A DNA stretch of 64,000 nt from a virus. The translations under genes and the position numbers were made by a program. Position 1 is the stretch's first letter. Every line of letters starts with the position of its first letter. Below the pieces are notes generated by a model that saw only the letters and a list, made by a program, of their open reading frames with translations, ran no database searches and had not been told where the DNA came from. The stretch spans positions 36,237-100,236 of the IMG/VR virus record IMGVR_UViG_3300002026_000004, one strand, 5' to 3'. This document shows, piece after piece, positions 3,328 to 52,296 of this stretch.

Positions 3328-3337
3328 ACTAATTAGT
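3328..3337. promoter_or_regulatory. Palindromic late-promoter motif ACTAATTAGT serving divergent genes (terL and 3350)
   Basis: One of 20 copies of ACTAATT[A/T] at gene boundaries; the 10-mer is self-complementary. Confidence 0.75.
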
Positions 3338-10613: not shown

Positions 10614-10638
10614 TGACTAATTAGTATAGGAGAACTGA

Positions 10639-12963: not shown

Positions 12964-13617
12964 CTAAACGAAACTCTTTAAACCTTGAATTATTCTATTT
13001 TGGTTATTCTGAGAAGCCCAAACTGTGTTAATCCATACGAAATTAGTATCAATGAATCCAACCTCTTCATTCTCAGAAATAGCATAAAACTGTATAGGTT
13101 TTATTAACTTTAAGTTCTTCTCCCTAATTAATGTTCTTACATACTGAGTTACCTTAGTTTCAGATTCTTCTTTTCCATTATAAAAATAAGAATATCCATA
13201 AGCTTTATCCATATAATATATAATTTGATTAAAAAATTTATCTTGAGGATTATACTCGCGGTGTTTATTTGGATAGAACCTTTGATTCTTTGGAAACGAT
13301 GGGAGTAGTGTAACATTCTTCATCTTTGCTATATTATACAAACGCCAATAACGTGGCTTTCTAGCGTTATTAGTTATTTCTGTACCAAAGTTCTTATTAC
13401 GAGAATAAGAGTATTTGTTTAATAAATATCCTCTAAAATAAATGCCCTTCTTACCTGAAGGCCATTGTTTAACACCTAGAACAACAGGTTGAACAATACG
13501 GGGGTGTTCAGGAGATTCTGCATCTGGAAAGAAAGGAGACTTATTTGAAGAGTAATTAAATTGAATTGGGCAATTTAGAGAGATTGCCTGTTTGAATAAT
13601 TTTTCATACTGTGCCAT
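12964..13617 (-). CDS. WYL-like domain protein (leaderless late gene)
   Basis: IQFNY, RIVQPVVLG and WRLYNIAKM; ATG 3 nt after ACTAATTA. Confidence 0.55.
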   Translation of the reverse strand: MAQYEKLFKQAISLNCPIQFNYSSNKSPFFPDAESPEHPRIVQPVVLGVKQWPSGKKGIYFRGYLLNKYSYSRNKNFGTEITNNARKPRYWRLYNIAKMKNVTLLPSFPKNQRFYPNKHREYNPQDKFFNQIIYYMDKAYGYSYFYNGKEESETKVTQYVRTLIREKNLKLIKPIQFYAISENEEVGFIDTNFVWINTVWASQNNQNRIIQGLKSFV

Positions 13618-13648
13618 GTATAATTAGTTATATTATAACTAATACCTA

Positions 13649-17876: not shown

Positions 17877-18450
17877 TATATTGACCCAACTTTGCATATT
17901 TTTGAACATCTAATATCGATGTTCTCCAATAATTTTCTTTATACTCCATATCCCAAACAAACCAACCAGTAACAAGATTTCCAACATGAAAAAGTCCATC
18001 ATCCCTGTGAGGAGTTCTATAATCCACTTGTCTATTAAATAAATAGACATATTTTAAATTATTCCATATACCTTCATTATTTCTCTTATACGCTCCAAAG
18101 AAATTAACTTTACCTAGAAAAATAAAACTCTTTGAAACTTTTTTAGCTTGAACAACAAAGTCATCAAAAATAGAAAAAGCAGGATTAGTAATGATTAAAT
18201 CTTTTTTTTCATTATCTAATAAAAAGTCTTTTCCTGTTGTTCTTATATCATCACAGATTGTTTCTATTCCTAAAGTATTTAAAGCCGAGGATAATGAGTT
18301 ATTTCCTGCCGCTGGTTCATAAGCCAATTGAACTTCATCTAAAATATTTGTTTGTTCTTTTAAAACCCATATTAAAGATTTTGGCGTCTCATAAAAATCT
18401 GCTTCAGGTCTTTCTGATAAAGGTTTTCTATTAGCATAAGCTTTCCCCAT
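17869..18450 (-). CDS. DNA amino-methyltransferase (phage type)
   Basis: DFYETP, EPAAG, DFL and ITNPAF (NPPF variant). Confidence 0.75.
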   Translation of the reverse strand: MGKAYANRKPLSERPEADFYETPKSLIWVLKEQTNILDEVQLAYEPAAGNNSLSSALNTLGIETICDDIRTTGKDFLLDNEKKDLIITNPAFSIFDDFVVQAKKVSKSFIFLGKVNFFGAYKRNNEGIWNNLKYVYLFNRQVDYRTPHRDDGLFHVGNLVTGWFVWDMEYKENYWRTSILDVQKYAKLGQYNE

Positions 18451-19130
18451 TATACTTCCTCAATAAGTCTATTTCTAATTTCTAGCATAGCTAAATCATA
18501 TACTTCTTTTAATTTACTATTAAGATAAGAATCTCTAAACTTCTGTAGAGTTGTATTCTTTCTAAAAGTCTGTAAAAACATAATAGATAGAATCATCATA
18601 TCTCTATTACTTAATCCTAATGTATCCTTTAAATCTACAACAACTGAAATCACTGTTCTAATTGCTAAATCTTCAGTATGATATAGTTTTAATACAGGGT
18701 CTTCAACCTCAGTAGAAGGACTCCAAAAGGGTTTCATTGATAGTGTTGTTTGTAGTTCTTCTAATTCCTTTTCAGAGGAAGCATTAGAAATAATAGAGTT
18801 TAAGGATAATATTCTATCATCCTTTCTATTCTTTTGTCCATATAAAACTTCTAATACTTTATATCTAAGAACTCCTCCAAAGGATATCTCAATCATATAC
18901 TCAGGATTTTTTTCATACTGTTCTAAAAATACCATAGTACATTCTACTGCTTTAGAAAAAACATAATCAGGGTTTAAGAACTTTTTACCCTTAGTCATCT
19001 TTAATATCATTGACCTTGAGTATTGAACTAATAATCCAAACATTTCTTGATAAGCAACCTTGTCATTACATAATCGCCATTTCCTTTGTAATTCATATAG
19101 TCTAATTTCTGTTTCAGAGCGTATTCCCAT
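18450..19130 (-). CDS. Sigma-factor-like protein (candidate late sigma)
   Basis: Helical protein with AYQEMFGLLVQYS, ISFGGVL and ILSLN resembling sigma regions 2/3; in the middle operon. Confidence 0.4.
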   Translation of the reverse strand: MGIRSETEIRLYELQRKWRLCNDKVAYQEMFGLLVQYSRSMILKMTKGKKFLNPDYVFSKAVECTMVFLEQYEKNPEYMIEISFGGVLRYKVLEVLYGQKNRKDDRILSLNSIISNASSEKELEELQTTLSMKPFWSPSTEVEDPVLKLYHTEDLAIRTVISVVVDLKDTLGLSNRDMMILSIMFLQTFRKNTTLQKFRDSYLNSKLKEVYDLAMLEIRNRLIEEV

Positions 19131-19140
19131 ATTTATTTCC

Positions 19141-20337
19141 TTAAATAATAAACTTTTGAATATAAATTTGCGATACACCTTTTAAGTATACTGCTCGTTT
19201 TTCATCAATATATACTTCAATATCTGAATCAGGAGATTCCTTAGCTAAGAAATCTTTTATTGAATCATAGATGATTAATGCTGTTTCATCATTAGTAAAT
19301 GTATTAGAAACTTGAATAGTCTTTTCTATTGAACAAGCTCCAAAACCTGAAACTCCTGAATCTCTTAAAAAGAACTTAAAGTCTTGAGTTCCTTTAACAA
19401 TCTCAATTCCTAATACCTTGAACTCAGATGACGATGTATAATATCCTGAAAAGAACTTAATTGCATCTAAAAGAACTGAAGCTTTTATTGTAGCAATTCT
19501 TACATCAGGTTTAATAGTTAGTAAATCTTCTTGAGAAGGTGGAACAGCATTACTCATAGCGTTTGAGAATAGTCCAATAAACCCTTGAGCAATAATAATC
19601 ATTTTATCTTTTTCTTTATTGATTCTCATTTCATAAGGTTTCTCTGTATCCAAAGATTCATAATATAATTTTAGATTCTTTTTATGAATAGGAATAAAGG
19701 AAGTTAAATCTGTAGCAAAATTAGCTGATTGAATAAAGACATGACGAACATCATTAACAATAAGCATATTTGAATATAGTGAAGCGGCATTGTTTTTATT
19801 CTCATCCTTTCCAAAGAAAGAAGATGATTTTTCAATAGCGGAATATAAGCATTGGCATTGTTCTTTATTTGTAGTTGAAGAAAATGAATGATAATCTTTC
19901 CAATCAAAAACTAATAGTGCTTCCTTCTCTTCTATTCTTTTATTCTCTATCTTAAAATTAGGTAGTGATAGTCTATCCTTATTAAGACTAATAATAAACT
20001 CTGAAGTTTCTCCACTTTGAATTAAAGTAATTACTAGTTCATTTCTCTGGTCATTTGAATACTGATTTAGGGTATACATAAACTTATTAAAATCAATATA
20101 CGTTCCTACTAAGGAAGGTAATTCCTCTTCTTCTAAAGAAGCACTTAATCCTACAGGTAATGTAATTTTAACTATAGAAGTAGGGTCTTGAAGAATAATA
20201 CCAACTTCTGACTTTTCTTGAGAAAATGTAAAAATTGCATTTAATGAACCAAATGTAGAAATTGGATTTAATAGAGATAATGTCTTTTCTAAATGCATAA
20301 TAGAACTAAAGTCTATATTAGATAACTGTAACTTCAT
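19141..20337 (-). CDS. Sliding clamp (DNA Pol III beta-like)
   Basis: 398 aa with a beta-clamp-like pattern (VNDVRHV, LLDAIK); middle promoter; DnaX elsewhere in the window. Confidence 0.55.
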   Translation of the reverse strand: MKLQLSNIDFSSIMHLEKTLSLLNPISTFGSLNAIFTFSQEKSEVGIILQDPTSIVKITLPVGLSASLEEEELPSLVGTYIDFNKFMYTLNQYSNDQRNELVITLIQSGETSEFIISLNKDRLSLPNFKIENKRIEEKEALLVFDWKDYHSFSSTTNKEQCQCLYSAIEKSSSFFGKDENKNNAASLYSNMLIVNDVRHVFIQSANFATDLTSFIPIHKKNLKLYYESLDTEKPYEMRINKEKDKMIIIAQGFIGLFSNAMSNAVPPSQEDLLTIKPDVRIATIKASVLLDAIKFFSGYYTSSSEFKVLGIEIVKGTQDFKFFLRDSGVSGFGACSIEKTIQVSNTFTNDETALIIYDSIKDFLAKESPDSDIEVYIDEKRAVYLKGVSQIYIQKFII

Positions 20338-20370
20338 TTCTGTTTACTCCTATTTATTCTGTTCATTGTA

Positions 20371-20399
20371 AGTATATACCAAATATCCTATTTTGGCTA
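20371..20399 (-). promoter_or_regulatory. Middle-class promoter
   Basis: TAGCCA-N17-TATACT. Confidence 0.75.
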
Positions 20400-20409
20400 C
20401 TAAAAACTA

Positions 20410-20438
20410 TTGACAATTTGTCATAGTAGTTGTATACT
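20410..20438 (+). promoter_or_regulatory. Early sigma70-type promoter with an inverted repeat over the -35
   Basis: TTGACA-N17-TATACT; TGACA-ATT-TGTCA. Confidence 0.8.
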
Positions 20439-20455
20439 ATTGAAAGGAGCCACAA

Positions 20456-21037
20456 ATGAATAAAGCAACAGAGTTGGATTACTTCTTAGTAAAAAGAATT
20501 AAGGAAAATAACGATGATAGTAGTAAACTAAAGCTATTTTACAAGTATAAGTACCTAGTTAAAGGAATGTATAATGAAAGCCTTTATTGGCTTAAAAGCT
20601 ATATATCTGAAGAAGATTTTATTAATGAATCATATTTTGCTTTTATTAAGGCATTAGATTATTGCGATTTAACAAAAGTGTATTCACCTGAAAAATGGTT
20701 ATTTCTAGGTTGTTTTAAAGATTGGTTATCTAACACAATTAGATTAATAAATGAAAAAGAAATGAGAATTTCTTATGTAAATGAAGATATTTTTAATATA
20801 GAAAGTTTTACATCCACCGTTAATAGAGAAAATAATAAAACTCTTAATGATATTCATGTTGATAAGTTCTATCAAAGCTTAAATGATAAAGAAAAAATAA
20901 TCTTTTTTTATCGTTATAATTATGGTAAAGAGGATTATTCTATTCGTAGGCTTGCTGAAATGCTTGGATGTTCCCATCAATGGGTAAGTATTATGAATAA
21001 AAAGATTATAAAGAAATGGAAACATTATACATCGTAA
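20456..21037 (+). CDS. Sigma70-family sigma factor (candidate middle sigma)
   Basis: KLFYKYKYLV, EDFINESYFAFIKA and region-4 HTH SIRRLAEMLGCSHQWVS. Confidence 0.8.
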   Translation: MNKATELDYFLVKRIKENNDDSSKLKLFYKYKYLVKGMYNESLYWLKSYISEEDFINESYFAFIKALDYCDLTKVYSPEKWLFLGCFKDWLSNTIRLINEKEMRISYVNEDIFNIESFTSTVNRENNKTLNDIHVDKFYQSLNDKEKIIFFYRYNYGKEDYSIRRLAEMLGCSHQWVSIMNKKIIKKWKHYTS

Positions 21038-21097
21038 TAAAAGTGAGAGCCACGTTGGAGGGGAACGTGACTCTCTAAAAGGGAGGTAGGAGGACAT
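21036..21097 (-). ncRNA. Candidate late sRNA with three CCUCC motifs
   Basis: ACTAATTA upstream, 12-bp hairpin with CCCCUCC loop, U-rich tail. Confidence 0.5.
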
Positions 21098-21127
21098 AAT
21101 AATTAGTGAGATTAACTCACTATATGT

Positions 21128-21562
21128 TTATTTTACCTTAATGTTTATTGATTTTGGTTTAGCTACTTCTTTTGAAGGAATCTCAATAGAGAGCAATCCA
21201 TTCTCAATTTTAGCTTCTACCTTATCCACATCATAATGGGATATTGGTACGAAGAACTTAGCCTCTGCTTTGCACTTTTTAATTCCCTTCTGACGATACA
21301 TAACTTTTTCTGTTTCTTCTTTTGGTGTTAATTTTAATACTAAATAATCATTAGTAAAATCAACAGAAACTTCCTCATCAGAATACCCAGCAATAGCAAA
21401 CTTATAAAGTAAAGAATTATCTTCTTTCTTAATAATGTCGCAAGGAGGGAATGCTGAAGAAACGAAAATGTCTGGTAATTTGGATGGAGCAAACGTGTTG
21501 AAGTCATCGAGAAATTCATCAATCAAGTCAGAAAAGGAACCTAAGCGATAGTGGGAGTTCAT
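21128..21562 (-). CDS. Small heat-shock protein (Hsp20/IbpA-like)
   Basis: FPPCDI, FAIAGY and AKIENGLLSIEIP; start at MNSHY with SD GGAGG. Confidence 0.9.
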   Translation of the reverse strand: MNSHYRLGSFSDLIDEFLDDFNTFAPSKLPDIFVSSAFPPCDIIKKEDNSLLYKFAIAGYSDEEVSVDFTNDYLVLKLTPKEETEKVMYRQKGIKKCKAEAKFFVPISHYDVDKVEAKIENGLLSIEIPSKEVAKPKSINIKVK

Positions 21563-21659
21563 AAAGAACCTCCTTAATAATATATACTTCTCCATACAGA
21601 GCAAGTTTCGATTAATTAGATTTCTACATATATAGACAATCTATATAATTAGTAGTTTA

Positions 21660-23042
21660 TTAAACTTCATATGTTTCTAAAACTTTTATAACATGCTCTG
21701 AAGTATAATAATTTTCTTGGTCTAATCCTAACAATGCTACTATTAATAAATATAATTCATCTTGTTTAGTATCAGCACTTTCTATTAAAATAGTTACACA
21801 AGCATCCCAAATCTTATGTCTAAAATTTTTAATAAAATTATAACCATAATTGTTATTTACAAAGTCCCTAGCTATTCGTTCTGTTTCATAATCAATAGCA
21901 CTAGCTTCTGCCTCTTGTCCTGCTTGTTCTTTCTGTTCTTCTGAATATAAGTCTTCATCATGTTTCCAATATCTATTACTAGCTTTATCCTCAGTAGAAA
22001 CTGTATCAGCTAACTCAGGTTCTTCTTCAATATACGCCCAAGGCTCTGAATACCCATCGTGGTAAGCAGAAGAATAATCAGAATCCTCCTCTAGATTATC
22101 ACTTATAGCCCATTTATACGTTTCTAACGAAAATGGTGTATCTGAAGTTTCTGAATATAGATTTTCTATATCATTACAATCAATAGTATTACCAAATCTC
22201 TTTAAAAATTTAGGATTTTTTATTGCAGTAAATATACGAGTTTTAATATCTGGGTCAAATAAAATATTATGAGTATTATTATAAATAGCTAATTTAACTT
22301 CACTAGGTAAGGAGTTTTTAAACTCTTCTCTATTTCCAATCTGATTGTCTTTTGCATCCATCCATTGATAAGATTCAAAATGTAATTGAAACTTCTCATT
22401 CTTAATCTTATTAATTATTATTATTAATGGGCCTTTTTCTGAATAATACTCAAAGTAATTATTATCACGAGATGCAGTACACCAACGAGTATTAGCTCCA
22501 TATTTACATGCCGCTTTTTCCGTATTAGGAGATACAACTAACCATTCATTATCTTCAAACCATTTATCATATTCATCATTACCAATACTGTCAAATTCTA
22601 ATTGTTGTAATTTATCTGCATAACTACTAACAACTTTATATAACCCAATAGCCCCTTTAATATTCATAATATTGTAAAGTTCTTCTGACTGTAATAACTT
22701 TTTACGTTTAAGTAAATCATAGTTTTTTAAGTCAGCAGTAATTTTAGAGTAGTCTTCAGATAAGAACATATCAAAGGCTCTAAACATATTATGGAAATGC
22801 ATAGTTCCTAAAAGTTCCTTGATTCTTGATAAAGATATTGGATTAAATATTTTAACATCAGAGTTAGTATTTATTTTATTAACAAAGGGGTCTAAATACT
22901 CTTTGAAAAACCATTGAATAATCCAACGAGAATATTTTTTATCTGTAGTTGGGTCTAAACCTACTAACCAGTTAAAAAGTTCTACATCTATTTTCTCTTT
23001 ATAAAAGTCATAATTAACAGCTTCAACTAAAAGTAATTTCAT
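21660..23042 (-). CDS. 'DPT/WC' family protein
   Basis: DPTTDKKYSRW and AACKYGANTRWC; leader MKLLLVE after SD GGAG. Confidence 0.7.
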   Translation of the reverse strand: MKLLLVEAVNYDFYKEKIDVELFNWLVGLDPTTDKKYSRWIIQWFFKEYLDPFVNKINTNSDVKIFNPISLSRIKELLGTMHFHNMFRAFDMFLSEDYSKITADLKNYDLLKRKKLLQSEELYNIMNIKGAIGLYKVVSSYADKLQQLEFDSIGNDEYDKWFEDNEWLVVSPNTEKAACKYGANTRWCTASRDNNYFEYYSEKGPLIIIINKIKNEKFQLHFESYQWMDAKDNQIGNREEFKNSLPSEVKLAIYNNTHNILFDPDIKTRIFTAIKNPKFLKRFGNTIDCNDIENLYSETSDTPFSLETYKWAISDNLEEDSDYSSAYHDGYSEPWAYIEEEPELADTVSTEDKASNRYWKHDEDLYSEEQKEQAGQEAEASAIDYETERIARDFVNNNYGYNFIKNFRHKIWDACVTILIESADTKQDELYLLIVALLGLDQENYYTSEHVIKVLETYEV

Positions 23043-23077: not shown

Positions 23078-23087
23078 ACTAATTAGT
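23078..23087. promoter_or_regulatory. Palindromic divergent late promoter
   Basis: ACTAATTAGT between divergent late genes. Confidence 0.75.
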
Positions 23088-37494: not shown

Positions 37495-37502
37495 ACTAAT
37501 TA
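37495..37502 (+). promoter_or_regulatory. Late promoter of the capsid gene
   Basis: ACTAATTA about 170 nt before ATG 37672. Confidence 0.7.
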
Positions 37503-37671
37503 ATATATAGAGATAGGAAAAGTTAATTAGAGAATCCATTAATATGGGAAACTCAGTATTCTTCGATTACATATAATCAGAATCTTAATGAATTAAAATA
37601 ATTCTAATACTTTAATGTAAGTAAAATCTAATTCCAAATCTATTAATAACACAAAACTATAAGGAAATATT

Positions 37672-39114
37672 ATGAGTATTAGAACTAAAATGTCAGAAGA
37701 TCGCTTTCAAATGCCTGAAGCTGACAAGTACGCAATGGACGAGCGGAAAGCTCGTGGTTATAAGTTAATTGAAAAATGGTCAAACGTTCCTGAAATTGGT
37801 TCAGGTTTACGTGCTATGGATGAAAGACGCGCTGTTAATTTAGCAATTTTACTAGAACAACAGACTCGCCATCTTTCCCGCATGTCAGAAACTCAGTATT
37901 CTTCAGCATTTGCCGCAACTCCTGAGAACATGATTCGTCTAGTTCGGTTAGCTTATCCTAACTCAATTAGAGACAAGTTATTTACAGACTTTGCTATGGA
38001 AACTGCTAAGGATTCTATTAAGTACATCAAACCTGTTTATGTAAATAAAGCTGGTATTACTCGTACTTACGGTTCAGACTTCTCTTCAGGTGCTGTTACT
38101 TATGAATCAACTGAAGAAAGATATCCTACTGAAATGGCTAACGGTGTTGTAATTGCATCAACTTCAGTAACATTCTCTGCTAATGAATTCGCTTTCGGTT
38201 ATATTCCTGGTTATGCAATCTTCGAGGATGCTTCTGGTAACGTAGTTGCTATGGAAAATAGAAACTTATCAATCTCAGTAGCTTCTGGATATACCATCAC
38301 TTTCAGCTATAACGCTGGTGTTTACACTCTTGGTGGTGCTGATGCAGGAGTTATCGCTCGTGCTTATGGTAGATACAATTCTGAAGGTGACTTAACTGGA
38401 ACTAGCTTAGGTGAAGTTGAATTAGTCATGACAGACTACCAGTTCAAGGTTCGTGAATTAACATTAGGCGTAAGCTGGACTGCTTTATCTGAAATCGTTT
38501 TAGATTCAACTGTCGGTGTTTCTACAGAGGAAACTCTAATGGATGCCGCTGGTCAGGAAATCAAGAAAGCCCTAGACTTCCGCGCTGTTAAGATTGGATA
38601 TGCCGCCGCAAAGACAAATGGTTTAACCCCCATTACCTTCGATGCAGAGGCTGGTGCTGGTACTGATGACAGCTACGTTCACACCGCTCAGACAATTACA
38701 CAAGCGATTGAAAGAGTTGGAGACGTTTTATACGATGACATCAATCGTGGTGGAGTTAGTAGAATCGTTGGTGGACCAAAAGCAGTTACCTATCTCCGCT
38801 TAAATGCTGGATTTACTACAAAAGGTGCTCAACCTCGTATTGGTGGTTACCAAGTCGGTGAACTTCATGGTATCCCTGTATTCAAGGTTCCTTCAGCAAT
38901 CGTTCCTGAGAATGAATTACTTTGCGTTTGGAAGAACGAGAATAACGATGCAGACGTTTTCGTAGCATTCGGTACTTTAGTTCCTTTCTGGTCAACTGGT
39001 TCATTACAGAGAAAGAATTTCTACAAAGAAGCTGGATTAGCAAGCTTTGGTGATTACCAAGTTCTTAATCCAAAATATGCTAACAGACTAATTATTAGCA
39101 ACATCCGTGGTTAA
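37672..39114 (+). CDS. Major capsid protein (T4 gp23-like)
   Basis: LIEKW, LAILLEQQ, IRLVRLAYP, RELTLGVSWT and EIKKALD; late promoter and terminator. Confidence 0.9.
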   Translation: MSIRTKMSEDRFQMPEADKYAMDERKARGYKLIEKWSNVPEIGSGLRAMDERRAVNLAILLEQQTRHLSRMSETQYSSAFAATPENMIRLVRLAYPNSIRDKLFTDFAMETAKDSIKYIKPVYVNKAGITRTYGSDFSSGAVTYESTEERYPTEMANGVVIASTSVTFSANEFAFGYIPGYAIFEDASGNVVAMENRNLSISVASGYTITFSYNAGVYTLGGADAGVIARAYGRYNSEGDLTGTSLGEVELVMTDYQFKVRELTLGVSWTALSEIVLDSTVGVSTEETLMDAAGQEIKKALDFRAVKIGYAAAKTNGLTPITFDAEAGAGTDDSYVHTAQTITQAIERVGDVLYDDINRGGVSRIVGGPKAVTYLRLNAGFTTKGAQPRIGGYQVGELHGIPVFKVPSAIVPENELLCVWKNENNDADVFVAFGTLVPFWSTGSLQRKNFYKEAGLASFGDYQVLNPKYANRLIISNIRG

Positions 39115-39133
39115 TAATTAAGGATTAGACTTC

Positions 39134-39165
39134 AAACCCTATCAATAAAATGATAGGGTTTTTTA
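39134..39165 (+). terminator. Intrinsic terminator of the capsid gene
   Basis: AAACCCTATCA-loop-TGATAGGGTTTTTT. Confidence 0.85.
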
Positions 39166-39210: not shown

Positions 39211-39843
39211 ATGTTTACACCTATTGGTAAGTTAGATCAAAAAGAAATATTAGAATGTTGGGAGTTTGCGTACCAAAAATCTTGTAAAAATAAAACAAGA
39301 TCAGTCAAAAATGACTTTGGTTCTTCATATTTAAGAAAAGATACAGAAATATTTATAGATGTATTTGGTGGAAAATTAGCTGAGTATGCTATTGCTAAGG
39401 AACTAAATAAAATTTATCCTTGTCGTAAACCTAATATGCTGGTGTTAGAAACATCTAGTTGTGATGATGGGTGTGATTTAGTATTTAATAATAAAATTAT
39501 TTCATGTAAGACTTCTAAAAAGAATAGTAAATTATTATTATTAGAAGTTTCTAGGTATAATAATAATGGTGAGTATTTAATAAAAGGTACACCTGTTCAT
39601 ATTGATGAATTCATAATTTGTAGAGTAAATTATATTGATGGTTTACCTAGAATAGGATCATATAAAAACTTAAAATCAATAGAATATGATACTCCTAGAG
39701 TTCTTTCTAAAGAAATGTTTAAAGAGGGGATTAAAAATAATAGTATTATGAATAAAGGATCACTATTAGGTAAAATTGCTATGCGAGTTAATAATTATTA
39801 TTTTAATATAGATAGTTTACCCACCATTAATAATTATTACTAA
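39211..39843 (+). CDS. PD-(D/E)XK endonuclease-like moron
   Basis: GKLAEYA, DDGCDL and ISCKT; own promoter; contains four GATC sites. Confidence 0.55.
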   Translation: MFTPIGKLDQKEILECWEFAYQKSCKNKTRSVKNDFGSSYLRKDTEIFIDVFGGKLAEYAIAKELNKIYPCRKPNMLVLETSSCDDGCDLVFNNKIISCKTSKKNSKLLLLEVSRYNNNGEYLIKGTPVHIDEFIICRVNYIDGLPRIGSYKNLKSIEYDTPRVLSKEMFKEGIKNNSIMNKGSLLGKIAMRVNNYYFNIDSLPTINNYY

Positions 39844-39849
39844 TTATAT

Positions 39850-40311
39850 ATGAAGTATTTACTAAGATTAGTAGAAGATAATGATGACGACTATGGTGAC
39901 GACTATGGTGACGACCAAGATGAACCTGTAATGTCAATAAATGATATAAAGAGTAGGATATCTTGGTTAGCTAAAATAGCACAAAAAGTATATGATGATT
40001 GGGATGAGGATGATAAAGATACTTATGCTGGTGGTGGTATCTGTCATTTAATCGCTGATGAGTTTTCTAGTTATCTTAATTTTCATGGTATTGATACGAG
40101 AACAGTATCCTCTTCACATGAGCAACATGTATATTGTGTTAGTGTAGTTAAAGAGGGTGTTTATACTGTTGATATCCATTGGTCTTATTATGAGTCTGGT
40201 GGTGGGTTTAGTTGGAAAAAAATACCTAATGTTGTATTTGATGGTAATGAAATAAACTTCTATAGGCTATCTACAGATTACCATGATTTTGATGAATATA
40301 CTGAAGACTAA
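39850..40311 (+). CDS. Cys-His-Asp (papain/transglutaminase-like) protein, leaderless, LxE leader
   Basis: GGICHLIA...QHVY...VDI; MKYLLRLVE. Confidence 0.55.
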   Translation: MKYLLRLVEDNDDDYGDDYGDDQDEPVMSINDIKSRISWLAKIAQKVYDDWDEDDKDTYAGGGICHLIADEFSSYLNFHGIDTRTVSSSHEQHVYCVSVVKEGVYTVDIHWSYYESGGGFSWKKIPNVVFDGNEINFYRLSTDYHDFDEYTED

Positions 40312-52260: not shown

Positions 52261-52296
52261 TTTATCTCCATTACTAATTAGTTTTTTACTTTGTGA

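Follow-up and report, generated by a model that had tools for sequence, protein, structure and literature searches.

A candidate anti-Shine-Dalgarno RNA with three CCUCC motifs at the 3' end of a phage hsp20 transcription unit

Why should a 90-nucleotide (nt) gap between two convergent phage genes carry three copies of CCUCC, the core of the anti-Shine-Dalgarno (anti-SD) sequence, in DNA of about 30% G + C? The gap (21038-21127) lies between a sigma-like gene on the plus strand and hsp20 on the minus strand, in a stretch of 64,000 nt (the window) that corresponds to bases 36237-100236 of the 100,236-bp IMG/VR record IMGVR_UViG_3300002026_000004 (G000 in our comparisons). CheckV gave the record a completeness of 37%, and it is therefore a fragment of an uncultured jumbo phage; 94% of its DNA is coding and 6% non-coding. 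For comparison, we used four related phages (G001, G002, G003, and G004; 382 kb combined) that were found solely via the major head protein, with 66-72% identity; G001 is 170.6 kb in size and has terminal repeats. The original prediction took the minus strand of the gap to encode a late small RNA (sRNA) mimicking the 3' end of 16S rRNA. Our answer is narrower and tentative: the element may be a C-rich anti-SD RNA like LhrC or RsaE, produced late in the form of a short RNA, of hsp20's 3' untranslated region (3'UTR), or of both, a reading to which we give somewhat less than an even chance.

Read along the minus strand, the element opens with an exact copy of the late-promoter-type octamer ACTAATTA (21107-21100), located 20 nt past the hsp20 stop codon. 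The octamer is followed by UU and then AUGU (21097-21094), which places an AUG 2 nt past it. The transcription start would fall at 21095-21097, a position taken from the spacing in this clade, in which ACTAATTA and ATG are separated by 3 nt; here the spacer is 2 nt. Downstream, a C-rich tract, UCCUCCUACCUCCCUUUUA (21094-21076), unpaired in the predicted fold, contains the first CCUCC (21093-21089), followed by UA, and the second (21086-21082), followed by CUUUUA, and includes the string CUCCCUUUU (21085-21077). Next comes hairpin H1, a perfect 12-bp stem (21075-21064 / 21056-21045) with six G-C pairs and one U.G pair, whose 7-nt loop CCCCUCC (21063-21057) holds the third CCUCC (21061-21057), and finally the U-rich tail ACUUUUAUU (21044-21036). 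On recheck, every statement about the sequence of the element in the original prediction was correct, the UU after the octamer having been left out.

H1 and ACUUUUAUU together make up a stem-loop with G + C directly before a U-rich tract on the transcribed strand, i.e., a predicted intrinsic terminator for the minus-strand transcripts (the hsp20 operon and the short RNA). A pattern scan called H1 as a terminator on the minus strand only, and it is the only strong minus-strand terminator after hsp20. The earlier claim that the stem is fully paired on that strand alone was confirmed: the U.G pair becomes a C.A mismatch on the plus strand, where the hairpin is followed by UAAAAGGG and has no U tract. 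The predicted minus-strand fold of 21030-21130 had an energy of -28.4 kcal/mol (z = -7.1). That of the 62-nt RNA, dominated by H1, was -18.4 kcal/mol, with each of the three CCUCC unpaired at a probability of >0.9, and the terminator comes 25 nt after the last open CCUCC. In the long hsp20 mRNA, the second CCUCC pairs in part with 21136-21138, whereas it is free in the short RNA. The predicted fold of the element thus presents an unpaired C-rich seed complementary to SD sequences.

The density of the motif had been called striking for such AT-rich DNA, and the counts agreed. GGAGG occurs 34 times on the plus strand of the 100-kb record, and three of these copies fall within 37 nt; this is the only triple GGAGG/CCTCC cluster in the record, and such a cluster arose in 2 of 300 simulations with a first-order Markov model of the whole record. 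The motif cluster is not a product of chance. Its copies are the only GGAGG/CCTCC called intergenic that lie neither before a start codon nor in an unannotated contig end, and no open reading frame (ORF) uses its GGAGG copies as an SD. The other simple convergent gene pair in the record (6248/6284) has one 35-nt bidirectional terminator between its genes, which indicates that the 90-nt gap holds extra content. Dense GGAGG/GGTGG repeats also occur inside coding DNA for glycine-rich repeat proteins (record bases ~1080-1700, upstream of the window, and 159840-160510 of G001), and these account for the remaining CCTCC clusters in the genomes compared. A pattern scan of IMG/VR for ACTAATTA with a double CCTCC returned 45 stretches (47 loci), all of which were rejected as chance or coding matches.

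The octamer belongs to a class that could be assessed across the clade. It occurs 31 times in the record, with 24 copies wholly inside the non-coding 6%, and copies lie 3-170 nt upstream of genes in the orientation of the gene, among them the genes of the head maturation protease and of the major head protein. The reversed octamer, used as a control, occurs 8 times on both strands of the 100 kb; the corresponding counts were 32 vs 7 in G001 and 20 vs 5 in G003, and G002 showed no enrichment (7 vs 6). At no fewer than 18 sites in five related phages (at least 18), ACTAATTA, 3 nt, and ATG open a long ORF, the longest, of 1746 amino acids (aa), being in G001; only three genes in the record are leaderless. 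The intergenic bias, the enrichment in relatives, and the fixed spacing to ATG together argue that ACTAATTA is a real late promoter giving leaderless messages. On these sequence patterns it is a clade-wide element with a start site about 4 nt downstream and, as a by-product of the analysis, it defines a leaderless late gene set.

Further observations on this promoter class were made along the way. Sites with the 3-nt spacing lie at 13617-13628 (minus strand) and 39839-39852 (plus strand) of the window and at record base 19625 (minus strand), with others in G001-G004. The major head gene has a 5'UTR of approximately 170-215 nt behind a late promoter, the position of which is conserved in all five related phages (37495-37671 on the plus strand of the window, 9797-10000 of L055, 9780-10000 of L058, and ~9830-10000 of L056); in G002 and G003 this promoter is the variant motif ACTAAATAATTAG. 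Four promoter copies take the form of the palindrome ACTAATTAGT (3328-3337, 10616-10625, 23078-23087, and 52273-52282), three of them between divergent genes, where they could fire both ways; the minus-strand copy at 10618 has no gene behind it. One ACTAATTA copy, at 39087, lies inside the 3' end of the major head gene. It has very poor flanks and no counterpart at the 3' end of the relatives' head genes, and in 39087-39165 (plus strand) the strong terminator of the head gene comes about 45 nt after it, with a TTGACA-N17-TATACT promoter of the early type next in line. This copy is probably a stray one.

The copy in the element is an exact octamer, intergenic, and oriented toward the unit to be transcribed. 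Its 16-nt context, CACTAATTATTATGTC, is identical to that of the head-gene promoter of G004, which lies at the conserved position, some 210 nt upstream of that gene. Based on the reversed-control count, the chance of a random exact ACTAATTA in a 90-nt gap is estimated at <1%. We consider on balance that the copy probably fires.

In the reading we favor, the element would be the 3' end of a late hsp20 transcription unit that doubles as an sRNA gene. H1 and the U tract would stop the late polymerase and so end minus-strand transcripts just short of the convergent sigma-like gene. The ACTAATTA copy would start an RNA of about 60 nt at ~21097-21095, ending at 21036-21040 with the terminator it has in common with the hsp20 mRNA. 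By pairing with GGAG(G) SD sequences, the two CCUCC in the 5' single strand and the third one, in the loop of the terminator, would keep the 30S subunit from binding. The short RNA would be the more active form, given that the second CCUCC is partly masked in the long mRNA. Such a promoter-to-terminator unit is plausible, and its architecture, as laid out in the DNA, is that of a 3'UTR-embedded sRNA with its own promoter.

In a far-reaching version of this idea, an abundant late 60-nt RNA would copy the mRNA-docking end of 16S rRNA three times and mask GGAGG ribosome-binding sites (RBSs), chiefly those of the host. If true, the phage would shut off host translation with an RNA that serves as a decoy of the recognition sequence of the ribosome itself, and the masking would move the ribosome pool to phage messages with a weaker SD or none. 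We regard this version as distinctly unlikely. Of the proposed 16S mimicry, the CCUCC core stands; beyond it, ACCUCCCUUUU differs by one inserted C from the common 16S tail ACCUCCUUU, which may not be the tail of the host.

Selectivity is one of several points that weigh against a regulatory role. The complementary RBSs before 28134, 9216, and 24545, as well as the weak SD of the capsid gene, are present as originally described. Duplex prediction over 153 start regions, a check set beforehand, yielded no specific target and nothing above shuffled controls: the best duplex (-22.6 kcal/mol) was reached by 18 of 100 shuffles in which the two CCUCC blocks were kept. It had also been proposed that late genes would be spared. 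Genes directly behind late promoters were, however, as complementary to the seed as other genes (Mann-Whitney p = 0.55 and 0.95), and the full GGAGG, used by about 9 of some 113 genes, is found before the late gene hsp20 itself, so a generic anti-SD RNA would also strike the phage's own late genes. A search for a RegB-like nuclease (PF10715) gave no match, but neither did the control genomes, which deprives this negative of weight. No Rfam family matched the element above threshold.

Conservation is a second such point. The hsp20 gene of G001, the closest relative in which this gene is present, also has ACTAATTA upstream, and its 3' end is a plain bidirectional terminator with a GAAA loop, carrying neither CCUCC nor a promoter. 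Across the 382 kb of G001-G004, ACTAATTA was never followed by YCTCC, a double CCTCC never fell between genes, and in no case did a terminator have C-rich motifs in its loop as well as its flank. The conservation of CCUCC in related phages, likewise fixed in advance as a check, was thus not found at the available distance, which extends to distant relatives only (Hsp20 44% identical). A CCCTCCTCTTTCC string in G002 and G003 was considered as an analogue and rejected, as it lies inside a coding region. At this distance the element is lineage-specific, present in one genome.

Closer relatives were sought in several ways. A blastn search of GenBank phages with 20400-21700 gave no match, nor did tblastn with the sigma-like protein, and among 5.8 billion proteins the sigma-like protein matched itself alone. 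The neighboring 467-aa protein had matches only in PA5oct-like Pseudomonas jumbo phages (27-30% identity). No close relative emerged when IMG/VR was scanned with this protein, with Hsp20, or with the sigma-like protein. An Hsp20 scan of JGI metagenomes gave identities of at most 30%, except for one 32-residue fragment at 50%, and a further Hsp20 scan, based on an alignment, contributed a near-duplicate of G001 and a 29% match.

Gene order bears on the origin of the gap. In G001 the sigma-like gene (31% identical) and hsp20 (44% identical) are co-directional, three plus-strand genes that are missing from the G000 record lie between them, and the sigma-like gene overlaps the next gene. Relative to G001, hsp20 is inverted in G000, and the two genes upstream of the sigma-like gene are syntenic; the synteny break is seen on comparing 18450-21604 of the window with 593-5331 of L061 (G001). 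The gap is accordingly a rearrangement junction relative to G001 and may contain relic sequence, a further point against a regulatory role. Within the gap, a small hairpin, H2 (7 bp with the 5-nt loop UUAAU, 21104-21122), the 3' arm of which overlaps the octamer, is the core of a 22-bp extended hairpin on the plus strand (21083-21139) with U-rich sequence behind it. The extended form (-21.2 kcal/mol, z = -4.0) has two GGAGG in its 5' arm and was only marginally better than shuffled flanks (33/1000); in this model, it may terminate the sigma-like gene.

The gap could on these grounds contain nothing more than ordinary crossed convergent terminators, H1 for the hsp20 operon and the extended H2 for the sigma-like gene. 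The GGAGG would then be relics, for example orphaned SDs left by plus-strand genes formerly located after the sigma-like gene; the ACTAATTA copy would be a relic or chance copy, and the short RNA, if made, a functionless by-product. We judge this explanation, the main rival of the favored reading, to be a serious contender, if on the unlikely side. It would fit the loss of the three G001 genes and the inversion of hsp20, the absence of the element from relatives, and the lack of a target or of selectivity for the short RNA. It would also fit that no usable ORF lies after UAGGAGGA, the plus strand's strongest SD-like string. Stray promoter copies do exist, as in the head gene, and the flanks of the element's copy score low compared with the other ACTAATTA sites of the record, which also counts against the favored reading: with the record's weight matrix for gene-proximal sites the score was -3.5, at the low end of the leave-one-out range (-4.0 to 6.3). 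Three independent CCUCC copies, one of them placed exactly in the loop of a perfect hairpin that forms on the minus strand only, are nevertheless improbable as relics. The low estimated chance of an octamer in the gap and its G004 head-gene context likewise speak against a stray promoter, and unselected G/C-rich relics should decay in a genome of 30% G + C.

Taking these results together, the proposal of a late anti-SD sRNA retains its promoter class, its terminator, the open CCUCC motifs, and an LhrC-like layout, and loses conservation, target, and selectivity. The value of the element is limited by its occurrence in a single genome of an uncultured phage and by the lack of an evident target or selectivity.

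The neighboring genes suggest other roles for transcription across the gap. The sigma-like gene (20456-21037, plus strand) matched a PHROG RNA polymerase sigma factor at 9.6e-10 and, short of the curated cut-off, Pfam Sigma70_r4 at 1.3e-4; a promoter of the form TTGACA-N17-TATACT precedes it (20410-20438, plus strand), and the element is complementary to its 3'UTR. Should the sigma mRNA end at H2, the two 3'UTRs would overlap by about 90 nt, and the late minus-strand RNA would be a perfect antisense RNA. A cis-antisense control of this early gene can therefore be envisaged, in which the sigma 3'UTR probably extends to the H2 terminator at ~21135, RNase III cuts the duplex, the sigma mRNA is destabilized late, and read-through of H1 adds antisense RNA across the sigma coding region. 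The promoters are of the matching types, early on the sigma-like gene and late on the opposing transcripts, and the plus strand has no U tract at H1, the next terminator-like site being H2 with its U-rich tail. This explanation is nonetheless unlikely: it leaves the enrichment of CCUCC/GGAGG unexplained, it depends on an extent of the sigma transcript that is only predicted, little read-through is to be expected from so strong a hairpin as H1, and the arrangement is missing in G001.

The same transcript raises the question of whether the plus strand is the functional one, with GGAGGGG in a hairpin loop and GGGAGGUAGGAGG in the sigma 3'UTR providing a platform to which protein or ribosomes bind (CsrA-type GGA sites or docking of the 30S subunit), forming the 5' arm of the stem that terminates the sigma mRNA, or folding into a two-tetrad G-quadruplex. 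One GGA would lie in a loop and two more in single strands, the extended H2 hairpin is followed by U-rich sequence, and GGGAGGTAGGAGG (21081-21093) matches the pattern (G2N1-2)4 of a two-tetrad G-quadruplex as read from the sequence. On the other hand, the extended stem, marginal against shuffled flanks, needs four G.U pairs, H1 is mismatched and has no U tract on this strand, the SD-like strings have no ORF behind them, and nothing comparable follows the sigma-like gene of G001. We consider a plus-strand function quite improbable.

On the minus strand, the late operon upstream of the element consists of the 467-aa structural-protein homologue and hsp20. The hsp20 gene (21128-21562, 144 aa; Pfam HSP20 1.3e-11, PHROG Hsp20 3.2e-14) has the element as the 3'UTR of its mRNA. 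Its start, previously placed at 21604, was corrected to the ATG at 21562, behind the SD AAGGAGG (21575-21569), and its late promoter ACTAATTA is at 21653-21646. This SD is predicted to pair with codons 2-4 (AACUCCC) with the AUG in the loop (21553-21575, minus strand), a small SD-sequestering hairpin that, as modeled, is reminiscent of the RNA thermometers of small heat-shock genes.

As hsp20 is among the few genes of the record with a full GGAGG and has three complements of it at the 3' end of its mRNA, the 3'UTR CCUCC might act in cis by pairing with AAGGAGG, possibly in a temperature-dependent manner. Folding led us to reject this 5'-3' pairing. The partition function of the 607-nt mRNA gave a pairing probability of 0.03-0.05 between the SD and the 3'UTR, the SD pairing instead with codons 2-4; the complementarity stops at the 5-6-nt core, and G001 hsp20 has a different SD and no such 3'UTR. 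Cis action on hsp20 is thus very improbable.

Least credible of all is a leaderless late protein gene, for which the case lies in the closeness of ACTAATTA to an ATG, the leaderless signature of the clade. The ATG at 21097 opens a 72-codon frame (20879-21097, minus strand) that runs through H1 and antisense to the sigma-like gene. The spacer is, however, 2 nt rather than 3, a strong terminator falls at codons 8-21, and G004 shows this ttATGtc context too, there at the start of a 20-codon frame within the leader of the head gene. The frame had neither a Pfam match nor a tblastn match in the relatives, ORFs of 60-72 codons are common noise in the window, and small ORFs on either strand of the gap had no homologues (Pfam; tblastn in relatives).

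An anti-SD RNA, as favored here, would have counterparts in bacteria. The C-rich seeds of LhrC, RsaE/RoxS, and RNAIII pair with SDs and block 30S binding. In enterobacteria, 3'UTR-embedded sRNAs of the DapZ and MicL type have their own promoter and a terminator in common with the mRNA; they are Hfq-dependent, act on specific targets, and have been mapped experimentally. The element shares with these an internal promoter at the end of the upstream gene and a short RNA that would have the terminator and seed of the parent mRNA; unlike them, it has a promoter whose use is predicted and a generic seed.

The icaR 3'UTR of Staphylococcus aureus contains an anti-SD motif that pairs with the RBS of its own mRNA (PMC3868564). 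In the hsp20 mRNA, too, a C-rich anti-SD motif in the 3'UTR could pair with the SD of the same message, but the pairing probability is about 4% and the complementarity is not extended. In low-GC Gram-positive bacteria, sRNAs with UCCC motifs, RsaE/RoxS among them, use C-rich regions to target G-rich RBSs (PMC6158497, PMC5419742). The element resembles them in having several unpaired C-rich regions, whereas it is much shorter, has a single hairpin, is not conserved, and gave no match to the RsaE/RoxS covariance model (RF01820) at E values up to 10.

LhrC is the closest in layout. In Listeria monocytogenes, it has redundant CUCCC...UUUU sites in loop A, in a single strand, and in the loop of the terminator; each of these sites binds the SD of lapB, and Hfq is not needed for binding to this RBS (PMC4132741). 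The element is likewise a short RNA, if made, that ends at an intrinsic terminator, with CUCCCUUUU single-stranded directly ahead of the stem of the terminator, whose loop contains CUCC, and the cmscan alignment of the two spans CUCCCUUUU and the terminator. LhrC (RF00616) was also the best match in Rfam; its score of 23 bits (E = 0.15 on 201 nt) is below the gathering score of 110, so the element is not a family member. Its single strand and terminator loop are C-rich, unlike the loop of its upstream hairpin (UUAAU), which further lies upstream of the predicted start, and the loop A motif of LhrC therefore has no equivalent here. The motifs differ as well, CCUCC with the full anti-SD core in the element and UCCC in LhrC, as does the setting: LhrC is multicopy and LisRK-controlled, whereas the element is carried by a phage, includes a late promoter of the phage type, and lies in a 3'UTR. 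By this analogy, the element resembles LhrC in layout from outside the family. If the favored reading is true, it would add to the still poorly charted regulatory RNAs of phages a very compact copy of the Gram-positive C-rich anti-SD strategy, with a late promoter to set its timing and with its place inside a chaperone gene's 3'UTR.

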